In this document: positions 4,006 through 13,915 of the stretch, piece after piece | How positions within the stretch are numbered: position 1 is the stretch's first letter | Layout: each line of letters opens with the position of its first letter | NCBI GenBank assembly: GCA_902763555.1 | Contig: CACWSI010000007.1 | Coordinates: 1-52,217, forward strand | From: an uncultured Erysipelotrichaceae bacterium | GTDB lineage: Bacteria; Bacillota_I; Bacilli_A; RFN20; CAG-826 | Direction of reading: 5' to 3' | Length of the DNA stretch: 52,217 bases | Program-made: the position numbers and the translations under genes | The notes under the pieces: model-generated | What the model saw: only the letters and a program-made list of their open reading frames with translations | What the model was told of the DNA's origin: nothing | Databases searched by the model: none

Positions 4006-5204
4006 TATTGCTTACCTCCTTCCGCTTTTGGTGTTTGTCCTTCGGACATAGGAGGTTCATTCTTACTCTTGAAGAATTGGCGTAAATTAAATCTAATTCT
4101 AAAGTTAGTGAAGAACTCACTAGTTAAGATTAATAAGAAGAATAAACCAGATAAAACGTTAGCGACTTCGCCACTATATTGTAAGTTAGCAGCGGCATTA
4201 CTACTGCCAACGGTAATAATAGCGTTCAATACTGAATAAAGAACCATTTCTAATGGGTTGAAGTGACCAAGCCAACTAATCATAACAGCGGTAAAACCAC
4301 GTCCACCGACAACTGTTTCACTAACAGTATGGCTAGAACCTGAAACAAGTAAGAAACCAGCAATACCACAAACAGCGCCACATAAGATCATTGTTCTAAT
4401 AGTGACGACCTTAACGTTAATGCCAACATATTCAGCGGTTCTAACACTGCCATTTAAGACCGCAATTTCATACCCGTGTTTGCTATATTTGAGATAGAAC
4501 CATAATGCTACTACTAAGTTAATGATGACGAAAATGCCAATAAGATATGAACTTCCAAAGATCTCTGGCATCCAACCAGCATGAGTACCGGCATTTAATA
4601 CACCAAGAGCGGTACTACCTGTAGCTTTAAACTTCAAAGAGAAGGCCGCCACTAAGCCGATAGCAATATAGTTCATCATTAAGGTGAATAATGTTTCGTT
4701 AGTGTTAAAGAACGCTTTAAATATCGCAGGAATCGCCGCCCAAGCAGCCGCAAATATCAAAGCTAATACAAGCATTAATATAAGCGCTAAGAAGTTAGGA
4801 ATAGATGGAGCGATGAATTTCATAACAATCGCGGCACCAAAGCAACCCATTAACACTTGGCCTTCAGCACCGATATTCCAGAACTTCATCTTAAAGGCTG
4901 GCGTAATAGCAGCGGCAATAATTAATAATAACGATGCATTCCACAGAGTGGAAAATGCTGTATTCATGTTAAAGAAAGTACCTTCAACAACGAATATATA
5001 ATAGCTAATAAACTTTTCAGGCATTTCATCCAATGTTATTGGGGAAACAAGGAAGGAAATAATGCCACATAAAAGCAAGGCACCTAAAATAAATGAAAGT
5101 TTAACAACAAAGACGAACCACGTTGGTACTTCATTACGTCTAGCGATATGGAAAAGAGGATTTCTAACCTTTTTAACTTTTTGTTTTTGTGCTAACTCAG
5201 GCAT
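4005..5204 (-). CDS. Nucleoside/sugar ABC transporter permease (NupB-like)
   Basis: FWNIGAEGQ and FNTNETLFTLMMNYIA motifs; start moved to ATG 5204 (MPELAQ), which overlaps the ATPase stop and follows GGAG. Confidence 0.9.
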   Translation of the reverse strand: MPELAQKQKVKKVRNPLFHIARRNEVPTWFVFVVKLSFILGALLLCGIISFLVSPITLDEMPEKFISYYIFVVEGTFFNMNTAFSTLWNASLLLIIAAAITPAFKMKFWNIGAEGQVLMGCFGAAIVMKFIAPSIPNFLALILMLVLALIFAAAWAAIPAIFKAFFNTNETLFTLMMNYIAIGLVAAFSLKFKATGSTALGVLNAGTHAGWMPEIFGSSYLIGIFVIINLVVALWFYLKYSKHGYEIAVLNGSVRTAEYVGINVKVVTIRTMILCGAVCGIAGFLLVSGSSHTVSETVVGGRGFTAVMISWLGHFNPLEMVLYSVLNAIITVGSSNAAANLQYSGEVANVLSGLFFLLILTSEFFTNFRIRFNLRQFFKSKNEPPMSEGQTPKAEGGKQ

Positions 5205-6945
5205 TTTCTTCGCTCCTTTCTTCAACTTTCTTAGTCATTAATAAACCAATTTCGTTTTTATTAGTGTCTTTGCAGTTTAAGATACCAGCGACTTCCCCGT
5301 CCCTTAACACAAGAACACGATCACAAAGGGCAAGAATGACATCTAAATCTTCACCAACATAGATGACCGCACTGCCTTTTTCTTTTTGCTTATTGATTAA
5401 GTTATAAATCATGTAGGAAGAGTTAATATCTAAGCCACGTACTGGATAGGCCACCATAAGAACCTTTGGACGGGTTGAGATTTCTCTACCGACTAATACT
5501 TTTTGAATATTACCACCAGATAATTTCTTAACTGATGTATGTAAACTTGGTGTTTTAATTTCTAATTCATCCACTAATTCTTTAGCTAAAGCAGCAGGTT
5601 TATTTCTATGAACAATACCACCTTTACCTTTTCTAAAGCTTCTTAGCATCATGTTATCGATAAGGTCCATGCTTCCAACAAGACCCATACCTAATCTATC
5701 TTCAGGAACGAATGATAATTTAATACCTAAATCACGAATCTCAATTGGTTTCTTGCCTTTTAAATTCATGATTTCGTCTTCATAGAAAATGATTTGTTCT
5801 TTATTAACCATTTCAGTTATTTCTTTATTTGTTTTACCTACGAGTGATAGTGGTTCTTTTTTACCTTTTAAGTGGAATTTACCTTGTGCGGCTAATTCTC
5901 TAATTTGTTTAATGTTTTTATGGAAGAAAGTGACTGGTTGTTCTTTCTTTGGGTTATGGAAAATAATCGTGCCTTGTGTATTTCTATTAAGGCCCGCAAT
6001 TGTTTCTAACAATTCTTTTTGGCCACTTCCAGAGATACCTGCGATACCAAGTATTTCACTACCATATACGGTGAAATTGATATTTTTAAGTACTTTTCTA
6101 CCATCTCTACCATTTAAACTTAAATCTTGAACAATTAAGCGTTCACCAGTGGTAGGGATTTCCATTCTATTGATATTGAGATCGACTTTATGGCCAACCA
6201 TCATTTCAGTTAAAATCTTTTCAGTGGCATTTTCTGTTAAGATATCACCAGCGACTTCACCTTTACAAAGAACAGCAACACGGTCACTGATTTCTAAGAC
6301 TTCATTAAGTTTATGAGTAATGATAATGATGGATTTTCCATCTTTTTTCATCGCTCTTAGAACATCGAATAATTTTTCAATTTCTTGTGGAGTTAAAACC
6401 GCGGTTGGTTCATCTAAGATTAAAATATCAACGCCTCTATAGAGCGCCTTAATAATTTCTAATGTCTGCTTTTCACTAACAGACATGGTGTTAACTTTTT
6501 GCCAAGGATTTAATTTAAAACCAAATTTATTACAAATTTCAGTGATGCGATTAGCGCTTGCTTTTAAATTAAAACCCTGTGCTTTTGTGCCATCTTTTTT
6601 GGCAATTTCTTCATAGTCTTTTTTAGTTAGACCCACGACAACATTTTCAACAGCGGTGAATGTATCAACGAGTTTGAAGTGTTGATGAACCATACCTATA
6701 TGGTATTTATAAGCATCGTGTGGTGAACTGATTCTAACCTTTTCACCGTTAACATAGATATCACCAGCATCAGGGCAATAAATACCCGCGAGAGCATTCA
6801 TAAGAGTGGTTTTACCAGATCCATTTTCGCCTAATAATGAGAGAATTTCGCCATTATACAAAGAGAGGTTACAATCGTGATTAGCGACTATACGACCAAA
6901 TATTTTAGTGATGCCTTTTAATTCTATGACTTGCTGTTTTTCCAT
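5197..6945 (-). CDS. Nucleoside ABC transporter ATP-binding protein with two NBDs (NupA/RbsA-like) and an insertion in NBD2
   Basis: Walker A GENGSGKTT, ILILDEPT, ITHKL, LSGGNIQK, VPEDRLGMGLV. Confidence 0.92.
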   Translation of the reverse strand: MEKQQVIELKGITKIFGRIVANHDCNLSLYNGEILSLLGENGSGKTTLMNALAGIYCPDAGDIYVNGEKVRISSPHDAYKYHIGMVHQHFKLVDTFTAVENVVVGLTKKDYEEIAKKDGTKAQGFNLKASANRITEICNKFGFKLNPWQKVNTMSVSEKQTLEIIKALYRGVDILILDEPTAVLTPQEIEKLFDVLRAMKKDGKSIIIITHKLNEVLEISDRVAVLCKGEVAGDILTENATEKILTEMMVGHKVDLNINRMEIPTTGERLIVQDLSLNGRDGRKVLKNINFTVYGSEILGIAGISGSGQKELLETIAGLNRNTQGTIIFHNPKKEQPVTFFHKNIKQIRELAAQGKFHLKGKKEPLSLVGKTNKEITEMVNKEQIIFYEDEIMNLKGKKPIEIRDLGIKLSFVPEDRLGMGLVGSMDLIDNMMLRSFRKGKGGIVHRNKPAALAKELVDELEIKTPSLHTSVKKLSGGNIQKVLVGREISTRPKVLMVAYPVRGLDINSSYMIYNLINKQKEKGSAVIYVGEDLDVILALCDRVLVLRDGEVAGILNCKDTNKNEIGLLMTKKVEERSEENA

Positions 6946-7009: not shown

Positions 7010-8218
7010 TTATTCTTTTGGGTTGACGGAACCGAGGTCGTTGATACCATCGATTAAAACGTCAAAGCTTGGAGCAGAACGGTATTCGGATTCGTGATAG
7101 TAACCACCTTTGATGAATTCGGTGCCATCTGGGTAATCGAATGTCCATTGTTTGCTTGGAGCCATATTTGCTTCACTTGGAGCTTCACCTTTAACAGTGA
7201 ATTTGCTTGTATCGAAAACTTTTAAAGAACCATTTTCTAATTTGGCTTTGACTTCGGCGACTTTTTCAGCGGTGCCAGGAGCAACATTTTTGCCTAATTC
7301 GGAAAGTTCAACAGAACCTTCTTTGAAACCACCACACCAGTTAGCTGGGATGTTAGCTTTTTCTGGAGATTCAGCTTCTTTAACGGCGTTGACGACGAAT
7401 TCATAGAATGGGGACCAGTTGATTCTGGAAGAAACCATGAATGTTTCTGGAGCAACATTAGCGGTAGAACCGTTATATGTAACGTTTGGAACTTTAGCTT
7501 CTTCACAAGCTGTTGGAGCACCATAGGAGTCAGCGTGTTGAGAAATGAGGACAGCGCCACCGGCGATTAAGGCTTTAGCAGCGGTCTTTTCAGCTGTTTC
7601 ATCATACCAAGAATCGGTATATTTGACGTCCATTGTGACATCTTCAACGATGGATTTAACACCAAGGTAGAATGATGTATAACCGGACATAACTTCAGCG
7701 TATGGGTGAGCGGCGACATAACCGATCTTTGAAGCGACGGAAGCATCAGCAGCTTTCATAGCTTGTAATTTCATACCAGCAACGACACCAGCGAGGTAAC
7801 GGCCTTCGTAAATGGAAGCGAAAGCGTTGTGGTAGTTAGCTAACTTTTCAGCAGCAGCTTTTGTACCTGTAGCGTGGCAGAATTGAACAGTTGGATGCTT
7901 TTTAGCGGCTTCAATCATATAGTCTTCATGACCAAAGGAGTCAGCAAAAACGACTTTGCAGCCTGTGTCGGCTAAGTTTTCAGCAACTTCTCTACATTCT
8001 GGACCTTCTGGAACGTTTTCACGAATGATTGGGTTGAAACCTAATTTCTTCGCGCTTTCTTTGAAAGCTTCAACGAAGTTCTTGTCGTAAGTTGAAGAAT
8101 CGGCTGGGTGTAAGCAGATTAAACCGACTTTCATTTTTGCATTGCCATTACATGCAGCTAAACCAGCGACAGAGGCAGCGGCTAATGCTAATAATGATAC
8201 TAAACGTACTTTTTTCAT
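7010..8218 (-). CDS. BMP-family (PnrA/BmpA-like) purine nucleoside-binding lipoprotein
   Basis: Lipobox GLAA-C23; ADSFGH, YEGRYLAG and ISQHADS motifs; purine riboswitch upstream. Confidence 0.92.
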   Translation of the reverse strand: MKKVRLVSLLALAAASVAGLAACNGNAKMKVGLICLHPADSSTYDKNFVEAFKESAKKLGFNPIIRENVPEGPECREVAENLADTGCKVVFADSFGHEDYMIEAAKKHPTVQFCHATGTKAAAEKLANYHNAFASIYEGRYLAGVVAGMKLQAMKAADASVASKIGYVAAHPYAEVMSGYTSFYLGVKSIVEDVTMDVKYTDSWYDETAEKTAAKALIAGGAVLISQHADSYGAPTACEEAKVPNVTYNGSTANVAPETFMVSSRINWSPFYEFVVNAVKEAESPEKANIPANWCGGFKEGSVELSELGKNVAPGTAEKVAEVKAKLENGSLKVFDTSKFTVKGEAPSEANMAPSKQWTFDYPDGTEFIKGGYYHESEYRSAPSFDVLIDGINDLGSVNPKE

Positions 8219-8286: not shown

Positions 8287-8334
8287 TACTTTAAATCAAC
8301 GGCGAAACATACGAACGATTATTTCGCAAACGGA

Positions 8335-8408
8335 TTTGATTCGTAGTGCTACATTATACGGTGTAGCGTAGAGACAACCCACCAATTAGGGAATTATACG
8401 AAGTCAAA
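8335..8408 (-). ncRNA. Purine riboswitch (C74, guanine/hypoxanthine type)
   Basis: Minus strand UUUGACUUCGUA-UAA-UUCCC-UAAUUGGU-GGGUU-GUCUCUAC-GCUACA-CCGUAUAA-UGUAGC-A-C-UACGAAUCAAA has canonical J1/2, J2/3 and P3, L2 GG / L3 CC kissing bases and discriminator C. Confidence 0.92.
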
Positions 8409-8431
8409 GTTTGTTTTCCTTTGACGCCATT

Positions 8432-9096: not shown

Positions 9097-9242
9097 AATT
9101 GTGCTACCTCTTATAAAAACGACAAACTTTATTATATGTCAGAACAGTGCTTTTCTCAATGTATGACAGTAAGAAATTTCATGCCAATCTTATGACAAAA
9201 ACTCGATTATGTTTTATCTTAGAAAAATTCTAAAAAAAGTGT

Positions 9243-9270
9243 TTGCAATGATATGCGTATGTGGTAAAGT
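9243..9270 (+). promoter_or_regulatory. Putative sigma-A promoter of the uracil permease-upp-prs operon
   Basis: TTGCAA-16 nt-TAAAGT with extended -10 TG at 9262-9263. Confidence 0.55.
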
Positions 9271-9288
9271 TTTAGGCAAAGGATTGCT

Positions 9289-9384
9289 ATGGAGAAACGA
9301 ATTAGAAAGTGTAAGATTCCCGCCGCATTAGGGGGTTTCTTCCCTCAATTTTCCTCCCCATTCGCTATTCTTATCTGTTTGTAG
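9289..9384 (+). CDS. Putative 31-aa attenuator leader peptide MEKRIRKCKIPAALGGFFPQFSSPFAILICL
   Basis: SD AAAGGA a few nt upstream of ATG; open frame ending in TAG that overlaps the first bases of the terminator stem; 3' half is strongly pyrimidine-rich. Confidence 0.65.
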   Translation: MEKRIRKCKIPAALGGFFPQFSSPFAILICL

Positions 9385-9413
9385 TCACCCCTTATTGTCG
9401 GGTGATTTTTTTT
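9383..9413 (+). terminator. Leader (attenuator) terminator upstream of the uracil permease
   Basis: AGTCACCC-CTTATTGTC-GGGTGATT stem with an 8-U tract, 20 nt before the ATG. Confidence 0.88.
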
Positions 9414-9433
9414 GCGCGAAAGGAGAAACATTT

Positions 9434-10888
9434 ATGTCGGCAAACAAACTTATCTTCGAAGTTGATGGCAAGCCAAGTTTCGGGAAACTCTTGGTCTTCG
9501 CGTTTCAACAAGTCTTAGCCGTTTTAGCGGCCACAATCGCAGTTCCAACAATCATTGGACTTCCAGTACAAATTCCTGCAGCTATCTTAGGTGCTGGTTT
9601 AGGTACACTCGTTTATTTAGTTTTCACAAAATTCAAATCACCAGTCGTTATCTCTAGCTCATTTGCTTTCTTAGGTGCTTTGGCTAACGCCGTCGCATTT
9701 GGTTACATGGGTATCTTACTCGGTGGCTTATTTGCTGGTTTAGTTTACGTGATCATTGCAATTATCATTAAATTTGCTGGTACAAGATGGGTTGAAAAAC
9801 TCATGCCTCCAGTAATTATCGGACCAACTGTTGCTTTAATCGGTCTTTCCTTAGCAGGTGCGGCTATGGGTGACATCGTTAAAGCTTCTGCTTCTCAAAT
9901 CAATGGTGGTTATAACCTCATCGGTTTATTATGTGGCTTAGTCACATTCTTCACAGTTGTTATTCTCTCTGTCCAAAATAGATTCAAAGCCGGTAGATTA
10001 TTACCATTCATTCTTGGTATTGCTGCTGGTTATGCTGTTGCCGCGATCTTCACAGGCATCGGCTACGCTGCTAACTTAGATTACTTCAAAGTTATCAACT
10101 ACTCACCAATCATTGAAAACTTCCAAAACATCACACTCGAATCATTCTTAACATATCCAAGATTCGCTTTAATCGGTGGTATCAAGGAATTAGCTGATGG
10201 TGCAGTCAGCGAGGAAATAGTTGCTGCCGCTGCCCAAAGTGGCAAAGTAGCACAAGTCATTACCCCAGTCGGTGTTGCGGAAGTTGCTTTAGCCTTCGTC
10301 CCAGTCGCATTTGTTACATTTGCTGAACACATCGCTGACCACAAGAACTTAAGCTCCATCATCAACAAAGACCTCATTACAGAACCAGGCTTATCCAGAA
10401 CCTTACTCGGTGATGGTGTTGGTTCCATGGTTGGTACAGTCTTCGGTATCTGCCCAAATACCACATATGGTGAATCCGTTGGCTGCGTTGCTATCACAAA
10501 GAACGCTTCTGTTAGAACAATCTTCGTTGCCGCTTTAATGCTCATCGTCTTATCATTCTTAAGCCCAGTTACCGCTGCGTTAAGAACAATCCCAAGCTGT
10601 GTCATGGGTGGTGTTTGCTTAACACTCTATGGCTTCATCGCTGTCTCTGGCTTAAAGATGTTCCAACAAGTCGATCTCAACAAGAGCAAGAACTTATTCA
10701 CAGTCGCTGCCATCCTCATTTCCGGTATCGGTGGTTTAGCTATCCAAATCCCATATGCTATCGCAAATAATGGTGCAGTTGAAAAAACAATTCAAATTAC
10801 CTCTATCGCAACTGCGTTGATTTTAGGTATTATTACTATGGTGGTAACAAACGCTGTTGAAAAGCGTAATGCCCCAGAAGAAGAATAA
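9434..10888 (+). CDS. uraA: Uracil permease (NCS2/UraA-PyrP family)
   Basis: FQQVLAVLAATIAVP, EHIADH and GDG..S...G..PNTTYGES NCS2 motifs; start set at ATG 9434 after AAAGGAG rather than TTG 9395. Confidence 0.92.
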   Translation: MSANKLIFEVDGKPSFGKLLVFAFQQVLAVLAATIAVPTIIGLPVQIPAAILGAGLGTLVYLVFTKFKSPVVISSSFAFLGALANAVAFGYMGILLGGLFAGLVYVIIAIIIKFAGTRWVEKLMPPVIIGPTVALIGLSLAGAAMGDIVKASASQINGGYNLIGLLCGLVTFFTVVILSVQNRFKAGRLLPFILGIAAGYAVAAIFTGIGYAANLDYFKVINYSPIIENFQNITLESFLTYPRFALIGGIKELADGAVSEEIVAAAAQSGKVAQVITPVGVAEVALAFVPVAFVTFAEHIADHKNLSSIINKDLITEPGLSRTLLGDGVGSMVGTVFGICPNTTYGESVGCVAITKNASVRTIFVAALMLIVLSFLSPVTAALRTIPSCVMGGVCLTLYGFIAVSGLKMFQQVDLNKSKNLFTVAAILISGIGGLAIQIPYAIANNGAVEKTIQITSIATALILGIITMVVTNAVEKRNAPEEE

Positions 10889-10903
10889 GTTGAGGAATAG
10901 ATA

Positions 10904-11578
10904 ATGGCTTTTGAAAATTATCCAACAGTCCATATTCTTGACCATCCATTGATCAAGCACAAAATCACAAAACTTAGAGACAAAACAACTAAGACAAGTG
11001 AATTCAAGATGTTAGTGAAAGAAATATCTGTTTTGGAAGGATATGAAGCACTTCGTCATCTCGGAACACAAATGGTGGAAATTGAAACACCAATCGAAAA
11101 AACACTTCAACCAGTTGTTAAACGTAAATCTCTTTGCTTTGTCCCAATCCTTCGTGCAGGCTTGGGTATGGTCGATGGTTTGCTCGAGCTAGTTCCTGGC
11201 TGTACTTGTGGCCACATCGGTTTATACCGTAATGAAGTCACAAAAGAACCTGTGGAATATTACTGCAAATTGCCTGCAGATATTTCCGAAAAAGATGTTT
11301 ACCTTTTAGACCCAATGCTCGCCACAGGCGGCTCCGCTATTGACGCGGTGAGAATGTTAAAGGCTCATGGTGCTAAAAAGATTACCTTCCTTTGCATTAT
11401 CGCAGCCCCAGAAGGTGTGGAAGCATTTGTGAAGAAATATCCAGATATCCCACTCTATATCGGTGCATTAGACCGTTGCTTAAACGAAAATGCATATATC
11501 TGCCCAGGCTTAGGTGACTGTGGTGATAGAACATTCGGTACCACAAACGGCACAACCGAAGATAGACCAATTATTTAA
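10904..11578 (+). CDS. upp: Uracil phosphoribosyltransferase
   Basis: HPLIKHKIT.LR, VPILRAGLGMV, LDPMLATGGSA, PGLGDCGDR.FGT. Confidence 0.97.
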   Translation: MAFENYPTVHILDHPLIKHKITKLRDKTTKTSEFKMLVKEISVLEGYEALRHLGTQMVEIETPIEKTLQPVVKRKSLCFVPILRAGLGMVDGLLELVPGCTCGHIGLYRNEVTKEPVEYYCKLPADISEKDVYLLDPMLATGGSAIDAVRMLKAHGAKKITFLCIIAAPEGVEAFVKKYPDIPLYIGALDRCLNENAYICPGLGDCGDRTFGTTNGTTEDRPII

Positions 11579-11635: not shown

Positions 11636-12565
11636 ATGACAAATAAAGAACAAGTACTAGTATTTTCTTTAACCACCTGTGAAGAATTAGCAAACAAGGT
11701 GTGTGAAGAACTCGGTGTGGAAAAATCACCCGCTATCTGTAGAAGATTCGCAGATAATGAAATTTTTACCAGACCAAACGTTGACGTAAGAGGTAAGGAT
11801 TGTATTGTTATTCATTCAACCTGTAACCCAGTCAATGACAAATTAATGGAATTATTAATCTTCATCGACGCTCTTAAGAGAGGTGAAGCTAAAACCATTA
11901 CCGCGATCATCCCATATTTCGGATACGTGAGACAAGATAGAACTATTGATTTCGGCGATCCAATTAGTGCTAAATTAGTGGCTAATTGTTTAAGAGAAGC
12001 TGGATGTAATAGAGTTGTATCAGTCGATTACCACAGTGGCTCAATGCAACCATTCTTCGAAAATATGGAAGCAGTGGAATTATATTCTTCCTCTGTGTTC
12101 GCTGATTATTACCGTAAACGCTTAAAGACATTAAAAGTTAAACTCGAGGACGTTGTCATTGTTTCTCCAGACAAGGGTGGCCTCGAAAGAGCGAAACATT
12201 TATCCAAAGATTTAGGTGATTTACCAATCGCGGTGTTAAATAAATACCGTCCTGAACCAAATAAGGCCGTTATTACTAACATCAAAGGCGAATCAGTCGT
12301 GGACAAGTACTGTTTAATGATTGATGATATCATCGATACTGGTGGCACAATTATTGCCGCGAGTAAAGAACTTCTTAAAAACGAAGCTAGAGGTATCCTC
12401 ATCTGCGCTTGCCATGGTATCTTTTCCAAGAACGCTCTCGCGAAATTATATAGATGTGGCATCTTAGATATCGCTATTAGTGATTCTATCCCACAAGAAG
12501 AAGACGTTGTTTCTATCGTCTCCTTATCGCCAATCATCGCTAAATATATCAACGAGAACTTCTAA
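11636..12565 (+). CDS. prs: Ribose-phosphate pyrophosphokinase
   Basis: FADNEI, MELLIFIDALKR, IPYFGYVRQDR, VSPDKGG, IDDIIDTGGT. Confidence 0.93.
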   Translation: MTNKEQVLVFSLTTCEELANKVCEELGVEKSPAICRRFADNEIFTRPNVDVRGKDCIVIHSTCNPVNDKLMELLIFIDALKRGEAKTITAIIPYFGYVRQDRTIDFGDPISAKLVANCLREAGCNRVVSVDYHSGSMQPFFENMEAVELYSSSVFADYYRKRLKTLKVKLEDVVIVSPDKGGLERAKHLSKDLGDLPIAVLNKYRPEPNKAVITNIKGESVVDKYCLMIDDIIDTGGTIIAASKELLKNEARGILICACHGIFSKNALAKLYRCGILDIAISDSIPQEEDVVSIVSLSPIIAKYINENF

Positions 12566-12673: not shown

Positions 12674-13915
12674 ATGAAATATAACGTTATTAAGAAAAAT
12701 AAAAGCATTAAAATTATTTACGGTGTTTGTTTATTACTTGCAATCCCTTTTATTGTTATATTTTTGCTCACCGCTAAATTTAGAAATGATTTAGAAAGAA
12801 CTATTGTTATCGTTGGTTCTATTGTTTTTTGGCTTGCGTTTTTTATTGCCTGGCTCGGCTATGTGCTTTGGAAAATAAGCTTTAATGATGAAGAGTTTAA
12901 GATTAGACACTTCTTTTTTACGAAAAAATATAAAAGAGATAACGTTATCGCTATAGATGAATCACGTGCACATCGAGCGGGATATCGAATGGGATATCCT
13001 GACTCTTTTAAGAAATATTATGCTATTCATACGGTCATACGTCGAAAGGACAATAATAGATTAATTGCGGAAATCCATGACTACTTCGTGGGCTCACAAT
13101 TTTTCAACGAATTAAAAACGTTACCTAAAAACAAAAAGTTCATGATGAGTTACAAACACGATAAAATCACTCCGGAAGATTTTGGACTTGTTGAAAGGGA
13201 TGGTAGATATTTCAGTAAAAAAGATAACTCCGAATGGATTAAACATTCGATGTTTGACTATGGTTATGGTCCAGAAGATGGCTTTTATAAGCTGCCATTA
13301 GGCAGTTTCAATGATCTTATTTCATTTATAGAAGGAAACTATAAAAAAGAAGATCAATCACTTTGCGCTGCAATAATGATGATGGAAATGAGTCCATCTG
13401 AAGTCAAAAAATACTTATTAAAAGTAATCAAAAATAATATTAATTCCGATTACAAACATTTTTTAAATTACGCCTTTGTGATCGATGCTTTTACAGACAA
13501 AAGCATGTCGGAAGACGAATGTAAAGAGTGGGAACACATTGGTCGCTGCTTACTTGGAACAGACTTCGTGGTGTATGAGGCTACCTTGGTTTGGGCCACT
13601 CCTGAAGAGGGCGGAAGAAAAGGACCCGTTCCAATGGAAAATAACAAATACGCTCCTCTTATTGGAATAAAAGGGCAAAAGACATTTTATGGTTGTGCTT
13701 GGTCAATAATTTGCTACAACTATGAAAAAACAAGTGATTATACAACTCGCAGTTATTTAAGATTTTTAAATTATGAAAGAGCTCCAAATATCTTAGCGAA
13801 AGGAACAATGTTCGAATTATATGAGGGTAGGAAGCTTGTGGCTAAAGGTGTTGTGGAAAAAATAACAGACGATCCAGATGTCTTAGACTATTTCGATTTC
13901 ACCAAAGAAGACTAA
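12674..13915 (+). CDS. Hypothetical membrane-anchored multidomain protein with a C-terminal EF-Tu domain III-like module
   Basis: Two N-terminal TM helices; C-terminal PEEGGRKGP...GTMFELYEGRKLVAKGVVEKI resembles EF-Tu domain III; no GTPase motifs. Confidence 0.7.
   Translation: MKYNVIKKNKSIKIIYGVCLLLAIPFIVIFLLTAKFRNDLERTIVIVGSIVFWLAFFIAWLGYVLWKISFNDEEFKIRHFFFTKKYKRDNVIAIDESRAHRAGYRMGYPDSFKKYYAIHTVIRRKDNNRLIAEIHDYFVGSQFFNELKTLPKNKKFMMSYKHDKITPEDFGLVERDGRYFSKKDNSEWIKHSMFDYGYGPEDGFYKLPLGSFNDLISFIEGNYKKEDQSLCAAIMMMEMSPSEVKKYLLKVIKNNINSDYKHFLNYAFVIDAFTDKSMSEDECKEWEHIGRCLLGTDFVVYEATLVWATPEEGGRKGPVPMENNKYAPLIGIKGQKTFYGCAWSIICYNYEKTSDYTTRSYLRFLNYERAPNILAKGTMFELYEGRKLVAKGVVEKITDDPDVLDYFDFTKED

Follow-up and report, generated by a model that had tools for sequence, protein, structure and literature searches.

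The 52,217-nucleotide stretch of DNA analysed here (the window: contig CACWSI010000007.1, forward strand, from an uncultured Erysipelotrichaceae bacterium) contains, at positions 9242–9433 on the + strand, a leader that precedes a probable uracil permease gene and that very probably acts, to judge from its sequence and that of its relatives, as a translation-dependent attenuator. The full model that we favour, with modest confidence, is that of a ribosome-dependent attenuator of the pyrBI/pyrE type, which would sense pyrimidine nucleotides through the speed of RNA polymerase (RNAP) and thereby control an operon for uracil uptake and salvage. An earlier note on this DNA had proposed that a translated leader open reading frame (ORF) governs an intrinsic terminator with no involvement of PyrR, and that core reading is supported by the comparative evidence presented below.

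The leader begins with a promoter, read from the sequence, that comprises a −35 element (TTTGCA, 9242–9247), a 17-nucleotide spacer and an extended −10 element (TGgTAAAGT, 9262–9270). Its match to the consensus is 8 out of 12, under the threshold of a consensus scan, which therefore did not list it; the promoter is nevertheless kept in the congeneric loci L003, L005 and L017 despite their diverged flanks. Transcription would start near 9274–9277, some 12–15 nucleotides 5′ of the leader ATG. A Shine-Dalgarno sequence (AAAGGA, 9278–9283) lies 5 nucleotides 5′ of that ATG, and an SD-like motif is found at the equivalent position in 25 of the 27 orthologous leaders described below. The leader ORF itself (9289–9384) consists of 31 codons and a TAG stop and encodes MEKRIRKCKIPAALGGFFPQFSSPFAILICL; the same frame is open in all 27 orthologous leaders. 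Its first 27 nucleotides include 21 purines (sense-strand purine content of the genome, 52.3%).

The second half of the ORF is of a very different composition. It is introduced by two mutually exclusive small hairpins (9316–9345), each of 6 basepairs, that share a run of G residues: the first pairs AUUCCC (9316–9321) with GGGGGU (9331–9336), as the earlier note had described, and the second, competing one pairs AGGGGG (9330–9335) with UUCCCU (9340–9345). One or other of them may possibly make RNAP pause where the pyrimidine tract begins. That tract (9336–9380) occupies the last 15 leader codons and contains 38 pyrimidines in 45 nucleotides (23 U and 15 C, with 3 G); we propose that it is a slow zone sensitive to uridine or cytidine triphosphate (UTP or CTP). 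Tracts with at least 38 pyrimidines or purines in 45 positions occur 24 times in the 1.145-Mb genome when both strands are counted, and of the 804,671 sense-strand windows taken from long ORFs only 7 are as pyrimidine-rich as the leader tract.

The ORF ends on an intrinsic terminator (9384–9413; −8.9 kcal/mol by folding), the putative attenuator, which consists of a 7-basepair stem (GUCACCC/GGGUGAU) with a 9-nucleotide loop (stem-loop, 9384–9406) and a run of eight U residues (9406–9413). The TAG stop (9382–9384) begins 2 nucleotides before the stem, and its G is the first base of that stem. From the end of the U run to the ATG of the permease gene (9434) there are 20 nucleotides, which contain a second Shine-Dalgarno sequence (AAAGGAG, 9419–9425) and no promoter. 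The earlier note had reported the promoter, the Shine-Dalgarno sequence and ORF, the purine and pyrimidine counts, and the overlap of the stop codon with the terminator at this distance from the permease gene, and all of these were reproduced on the window. Immediately after the U run (9414–9417 in the window), 22 of the 27 leaders have a G and 15 of the 27 have GC; E. coli pyrL (L117) has GCCC at this position, and the G or GC may bear on the escape of polymerase from the U tract. A genome-wide scan for the same layout (Shine-Dalgarno sequence and short ORF, terminator, gene) returned the present site and one dubious case, which lies upstream of a 736-residue ORF, presumably pnp, an identification based on the N-terminal residues and not on a family search.

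We compared the leader with the regions upstream of 110 homologous permease genes, of which 30 belong to the same family and 80 to other Bacillota, the latter mostly from metagenome-assembled genomes (MAGs) of Clostridia. The leader layout was found at 27 of the 110 loci (17 from the bacterium's own family and 10 from Clostridia MAGs), which fall into approximately 21 sequence groups. Each has an ATG ORF of 23–48 codons, led by a Shine-Dalgarno sequence and ending at an intrinsic terminator just 5′ of the permease gene, and that terminator is equivalent to the one in the window in all 27. In 26 of them the first base of the stop codon is located between −9 and +10 nucleotides from the first base of the stem (median −2), that is, before the stem, within its 5′ arm or in its loop; the exception is L009, in which the ORF crosses the whole terminator as it does in E. 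coli pyrL. In all of the leaders, the terminator's 5′ arm would be masked by a ribosome that has arrived at the stop or its vicinity. Summed over the 27, the coding frame contains no internal stops, whereas the two alternative frames contain 64 and 58.

The encoded peptides, on the other hand, are unrelated between groups, and no motif is common to all of the approximately 21 groups (the same-species variants L113–L115 have identical leaders; L112 is masked). Shuffling the leaders in 15-nucleotide blocks, a procedure that preserves the purine-rich start and the pyrimidine-rich end, and for which the stem window was set generously, produced an ORF of at least 20 codons with a Shine-Dalgarno sequence and ATG, ending near the stem, at a rate of 4.4% of trials per locus. 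Position and frame of the ORF are thus conserved while its sequence is not, which is the signature of a leader that requires translation, not of an aptamer or of a functional peptide. The expectation in the earlier note that ORF position and stop-to-hairpin distance would be kept while the peptides diverge, with a pyrimidine bias that persists regardless, agrees with these results and with the U bias at synonymous sites described further below.

The same comparison bears on two explanations in which the ORF would play another part or none. The basic N-terminus and hydrophobic C-terminus of the encoded peptide would suit a small, functional membrane peptide with a terminator of its own, with the permease gene expressed by leaky readthrough. 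The peptide sequences, however, differ between groups, the stop position follows the terminator stem and not the length of the peptide, and the 20 nucleotides between terminator and permease gene lack a promoter, so that the operon needs readthrough; we regard this explanation as highly improbable.

A trans-acting factor or metabolite (through a riboswitch, or as an RNA-binding protein distinct from PyrR) might instead shift a balance between terminator and antiterminator, the ORF being incidental. Within the window, the segment AGGGGGU (9330–9336) can indeed pair over 7 basepairs with ACCCCUU of the terminator's 5′ arm (9387–9393), or with either of its two local partners. The terminator arms of L007, L008 and L021 (GACUCUC, GGCUCUC), however, have no complementary G-rich partner, and even within the genus the fold with the terminator arm differs in energy from that without it by just 0 to −6 kcal/mol. 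The leader has no match in Rfam at E values up to 10, its overall fold is unremarkable in stability (z −1.1), and the leaders are too divergent to share an aptamer even as the ORF and its stop position are always retained. We consider control by such a factor quite improbable. Pairing of the G run with the terminator arm was accordingly set aside as a common antiterminator mechanism, being unconserved outside the genus and energetically marginal, and a riboswitch was likewise rejected on the absence of an Rfam match, the ordinary stability of the fold and a likeness among leaders that lies in architecture and not in sequence.

If the leader is read by a ribosome, the next question is what it senses, and here the nucleotide composition of its 3′ half is informative. 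Averaged over the 27 ORFs, the last 45 nucleotides are 67% pyrimidine (43% U and 23% C, with 20% A and 13% G). When the expectation is calculated from each encoded residue and from codon usage in the permease gene next to the leader, 114.8 ± 8.1 synonymous third positions in the last 15 codons of the 27 leaders should have U, and 190 do (z 9.2); codons 2–11 display no U excess (z 1.3). The preference among phenylalanine codons is also reversed, with a TTT:TTC ratio of 39:24 in the leaders versus 267:520 in the permease genes. The synonymous U excess and the reversed codon preference therefore point to selection on the RNA of the leader's 3′ half, beyond the peptide that it encodes.

These observations also weigh on the possibility that the attenuator is ribosome-dependent and responds to another signal, such as translation capacity, the charging of transfer RNA (for Phe, Ser, Pro or Leu), or a nascent arrest peptide able to detect a pyrimidine compound within the exit tunnel. 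The geometry of ORF and terminator by itself names no signal, phenylalanine is 2.7-fold enriched in the last 15 codons, and pieces of peptide are conserved inside sub-groups: the own-family leaders have G-x-[FI]-P-[LQ] in common, and a Christensenella-like group has ...AFSFDEC...TIIA-stop in common. In two leaders (L015 and L020) the ORF finishes with ...RP-stop and its stop codon falls within the loop of the terminator; a proline at this place is known from TnaC to make release slow, and would lengthen the stay of the ribosome on the terminator. We nonetheless think a different signal unlikely. No peptide motif is common to all of the groups, the C-terminal half of the L004 peptide is devoid of phenylalanine, the regulated genes are unlinked to phenylalanine, and the conserved pieces of peptide overlap the RNA hairpin and pyrimidine tract and may just mirror the RNA, on which the U excess and the TTT/TTC reversal indicate selection. 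An amino-acid attenuator of the trpL, hisL or pheL type was rejected in particular, given an operon for nucleobase salvage, a phenylalanine content that is not universal, and no conserved antiterminator; for the sub-groups with conserved pieces of peptide, a Phe-type attenuator or an arrest peptide keeps some small likelihood.

Selection on U at the level of nucleotides, taken with the regulated function (uracil + phosphoribosyl pyrophosphate → uridine monophosphate, UMP), fits a slowing of RNAP shortly ahead of the terminator under UTP or CTP limitation, on which the enterobacterial pyrBI and pyrE attenuators are based. The sensing of UTP or CTP is suggested by composition and context, and both the translation of the leader ORF and the sign of the effect are likewise predicted. 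In the default state, the terminator (9384–9413) would form and transcription would halt 20 nucleotides before the permease gene. A ribosome on the 31-codon leader would reach the TAG in time only if it followed directly behind RNAP; with its A site on the stop codon, it would cover the 5′ arm while polymerase was still in the U run, so that no hairpin could form and the operon would be transcribed. When UTP or CTP is scarce, the 45-nucleotide U/C-rich tract, located after the small hairpin, would slow RNAP, the ribosome would catch up, and the operon would be on. When pyrimidine nucleotides are plentiful, RNAP would outrun the ribosome and terminate, and the operon would be off.

The dimensions of the two machines would suit such an arrangement. 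The leading edge of a ribosome with its A site on the TAG would extend approximately 12–15 nucleotides further, across the 7-nucleotide 5′ arm, while RNAP would hold approximately 14–18 nucleotides of transcript behind its active site. The stop codon could then be occupied only when RNAP is at least approximately 26–30 nucleotides further on, which places it within the U run (24–31 nucleotides downstream). Only a closely trailing ribosome would thus block the hairpin at the time of decision, and the relative speed of RNAP and ribosome would therefore be the regulated variable.

Two further ideas about the pyrimidine-rich RNA were pursued. One idea is that the tract, once transcribed, might also close the leader's ribosome binding site. 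The purine-rich Shine-Dalgarno and ATG region is predicted to pair with the tract with a probability of 0.63, versus 0.57 for dinucleotide shuffles (Wilcoxon p 0.049), an effect that is largely compositional, and such pairing is no more than a speculative addition to the model. The other, CTP-sensitive reiterative transcription of the pyrG type, needs a GGGC start and a poly-G that pairs with the terminator arm; the window has AGGC, and its relatives have AGUC, AGGU, AAGAC and AUGAC, and with a start that varies in this way the idea was rejected.

The genome (G000), a MAG of 1.145 Mb with 36% G+C and an estimated completeness of 85%, offers little sign of the regulators that might otherwise be invoked. 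The earlier note had seen no PyrR binding loop in the leader, and the searches are in accord: the PyrR RNA family (Rfam RF00515) has no match in the window, whether at the gathering threshold or at E values up to 10, and none genome-wide, and a simple regular expression for the loop found no match over all of the loci. The best match to the PyrR protein in the genome reaches 23 bits versus a cut-off of 140, and pyrR is also absent from the closest congener, G035 (92% complete). Twenty related loci searched against Rfam contained neither PyrR nor any other cis-regulatory family.

A rho gene was likewise not found in the genome; the weak matches are two adjacent ORFs of approximately 500 residues (38.6 and 29.2 bits versus a cut-off of 509) that are probably ATP-synthase-like P-loop ATPases. 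This result bears on a further explanation, in which the tract is a loading site for Rho, and translation of the leader shields the transcript from Rho-dependent polarity under runaway transcription. Pyrimidine-rich nascent RNA in which C exceeds G and T is abundant is a target of B. subtilis Rho (PMC13323073), and the tract, with its 15 C and 3 G, has this character. The B. subtilis targets are, however, pyrimidine-rich stretches of more than 150 nucleotides (PMC13323073), as compared with 45 nucleotides here, and every leader contains a strong intrinsic terminator; together with the missing rho gene, these points make the Rho explanation highly improbable.

The searches for de novo pyrimidine genes found no pyrF in the genome and, for pyrB, only a carbamoyltransferase match below cut-off at a contig end. 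Because of these two results, the supply of UMP probably depends on the uracil salvage operon.

Several observations weigh against the pyrBI/pyrE-type model. The pyrimidine bias is uneven among the leaders, with only 23–24 pyrimidines in 45 nucleotides in L009, L033 and L034, and the codon usage of permease genes, from which the expected number of U residues was calculated, may misrepresent that of short ORFs. Among nine related leaders, the internal hairpin reduces to a consensus of 4 basepairs with weak covariation. Of the 27 genomes with the leader, 21 lack PyrR and six, two congeners among them, encode it, so that PyrR and the leader are not mutually exclusive. Finally, because the genome is 85% complete, pyrR, rho and pyrF are probably but not certainly missing from the organism.

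The earlier note's assignment of the downstream target to uracil salvage was borne out by family searches. The first gene (9434–10888, + strand) encodes a nucleobase permease of the NCS2 family (484 residues; Pfam Xan_ur_permease, E 2e-65), probably a uracil permease similar to UraA or PyrP. Its best NCBIfam matches are to the ncs2 and uracil permease models, both under the curated cut-offs, and we infer uracil as its substrate because upp adjoins it; identical copies of the gene are present in rumen metagenomes. It is followed on the same strand by upp, for uracil phosphoribosyltransferase (10904–11578; NCBIfam equivalogs NF001097 at 266 bits and TIGR01091 at 262 bits, both above cut-off), and by prs, for ribose-phosphate diphosphokinase, the phosphoribosyl pyrophosphate synthetase (11636–12565; NF002320, 306 bits, above cut-off). 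A 413-residue ORF 3′ of prs on the same strand (12674–13915), without a Pfam or NCBIfam family, may be the operon's last gene.

The apt gene is transcribed divergently from the permease-upp-prs operon. Further along the − strand, a purine riboswitch (8324–8421; Rfam RF00167, 45.4 bits) is located upstream of a nucleoside transporter belonging to the ABC (ATP-binding cassette) class, comprising a substrate-binding lipoprotein of the Bmp/PnrA type and an ABC ATPase (7010–8218 and 5197–6945, both on the − strand). Purine and nucleoside uptake thus stands back to back with apt and the uracil salvage operon, and the region is therefore a nucleobase salvage island.

When the 110 permeases are arranged in a tree, the leader is clustered yet scattered, with at least 11 changes of leader type, at least 9 of them forced by well-supported branches. 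At 23 of the 110 loci, a pyrR gene lies directly upstream of the permease gene in place of the leader, as an alternative solution; at others there are plain promoters, repeats that resemble operators, or an unclassified leader of another kind, with terminator and antiterminator. A congener (G121, locus L017) illustrates how leader and permease can part company: its apt, leader, upp and prs are 80–95% identical to those of the window, while the body of its permease, which belongs to another clade, is only 40–75% identical to 9486–10900. Flanks that are alike around a divergent permease indicate that the permease was exchanged beneath a retained leader.

Two other arrangements upstream of the same permease were recorded in the survey. 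Six loci from Oscillospiraceae-type MAGs (L035, L061, L064, L067, L088 and L095) have another conserved leader, approximately 60–150 nucleotides 5′ of the permease start, in which a helix (CAUCUU...AAGAUG) encloses a structured insert and the 3′ strand, CGACAAGAU, has the terminator arm GUCUUGUCG as an alternative pairing partner. This leader has no ORF and no Rfam match and is a candidate for an unclassified riboswitch or protein-binding attenuator. At L046, L048 and L053, repeated TTCTACAATATATTGACA boxes overlap the promoter upstream of the permease gene; they resemble operators for a putative repressor and would constitute a third route of regulation for this permease.

The closest known counterpart by layout is the pyrBI leader (pyrL) of E. 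coli and Salmonella, which has the same dedicated short ORF with a Shine-Dalgarno sequence, the same order of hairpin, U/C-rich tract, intrinsic terminator with eight U residues and structural genes, and likewise no regulatory protein. The E. coli pyrL sequence, which we fetched for comparison, has a small hairpin, 31 pyrimidines in the 45 nucleotides before the stem (...CCGUUUUUCUUCCCGUUGAUCACCCAUUCCC), a peptide containing ...GLPFFFPLITHS... (...PFFFPLI...), and an 8-basepair terminator with eight U residues followed by GCCC. The leaders described here contain UUUCUUCCCUCAAUUUUCCUCCCCAUUC and encode peptides such as GGFFPQFSSPF and KGFFPLIKSS, a composition closely like that of pyrL. The resemblance is compositional, since all-pyrimidine codons encode only F, S, L and P. 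Pfam includes a model for the pyrBI leader peptide; the four leader peptides that we searched had no Pfam match at E values up to 10, and we regard the two systems as analogous and not as a family by descent. They also differ in that pyrL has 44 codons and crosses the attenuator, with its stop 44 nucleotides past the first stem base (the window's stop begins 2 nucleotides before the stem), and in that pyrBI serves de novo synthesis in an enterobacterium, whereas the target here is uracil uptake and salvage in a small-genome member of the Bacillota. The reiterative-transcription control of the pyrBI promoter has no visible counterpart in the window.

In its geometry, the leader is closer to rph-pyrE of E. 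coli. There, the upstream ORF stops a few nucleotides before the attenuator hairpin, and termination is prevented only by a ribosome at the stop close behind a UTP-limited polymerase; in the rph-1 frameshift, translation stops earlier and pyrE expression is lower. The leaders described here have the same placement of the stop at the foot of the stem, with the difference that the upstream ORF of rph-pyrE is a full-length gene, rph, and not a dedicated leader peptide. With the PyrR attenuation of pyrP and the pyr operon in Bacillus and other Bacillota they share a uracil permease function, a 5′ leader position and an output through an intrinsic terminator; they differ in having no binding loop, no pyrR gene and no conserved antiterminator or anti-antiterminator in the present genome, and a conserved ORF instead.

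The earlier note had further held that a coupling-dependent attenuator, in a lineage not known to use one, would imply functional transcription-translation coupling. The attenuator itself is supported; the implication for coupling is less radical than was claimed, since ribosome-mediated attenuation is already known in Bacillota for the antibiotic-inducible genes bmrCD (PMC4191407) and vmlR (PMC9226507). The bmrB-bmrCD, vmlR and msrD leaders resemble the present ones in combining, in Bacillota, a leader ORF with an intrinsic terminator whose formation is decided by the position of a ribosome. They differ in that a drug-stalled ribosome selects among alternative hairpins to induce antibiotic-inducible genes, whereas the leaders described here have no conserved alternative hairpin, an ORF that ends on the terminator and a nucleotide-salvage target. 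Full-text literature searches brought up no account of pyrP or a uracil permease gene of Bacillota being controlled by a leader-peptide attenuator. What we rate as new is the application of the pyrBI/pyrE principle, itself already known, to uracil salvage in Bacillota by an ORF that ends on the terminator.

Attenuation that is UTP-sensitive, coupled to translation and free of any regulatory protein is textbook knowledge for the enterobacterial pyrBI and pyrE, and in Bacillota PyrR is thought to govern the pyrimidine genes, with reiterative transcription in the case of pyrG. If the uracil permease gene is under a conserved leader-ORF attenuator, Bacillota would have a third solution that does without PyrR, and this would explain how the sole visible route to UMP is regulated in gut and rumen bacteria that lack PyrR and are auxotrophic for pyrimidines. 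The leaders also mark an annotation gap, as the ORFs of 23–48 codons and their terminators have no matching model in Rfam 15 and no Pfam family. It is possible, at a little short of even likelihood in our estimation, that many gut and rumen Bacillota (Clostridia as well as small-genome, probably Bacilli-like lineages), often without PyrR and here without Rho, gauge UTP or CTP in this protein-free manner, by a race between RNAP and the first ribosome on a leader ORF that finishes at a terminator. The description of runaway transcription in B. subtilis has opened the question of coupling outside the Proteobacteria, for which the attenuator would offer a simple genetic read-out of physical coupling between polymerase and the lead ribosome; if the proposal is true, it would constitute direct genetic evidence for tight, regulatory transcription-translation coupling in these lineages, unlike the runaway transcription of B. 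subtilis.

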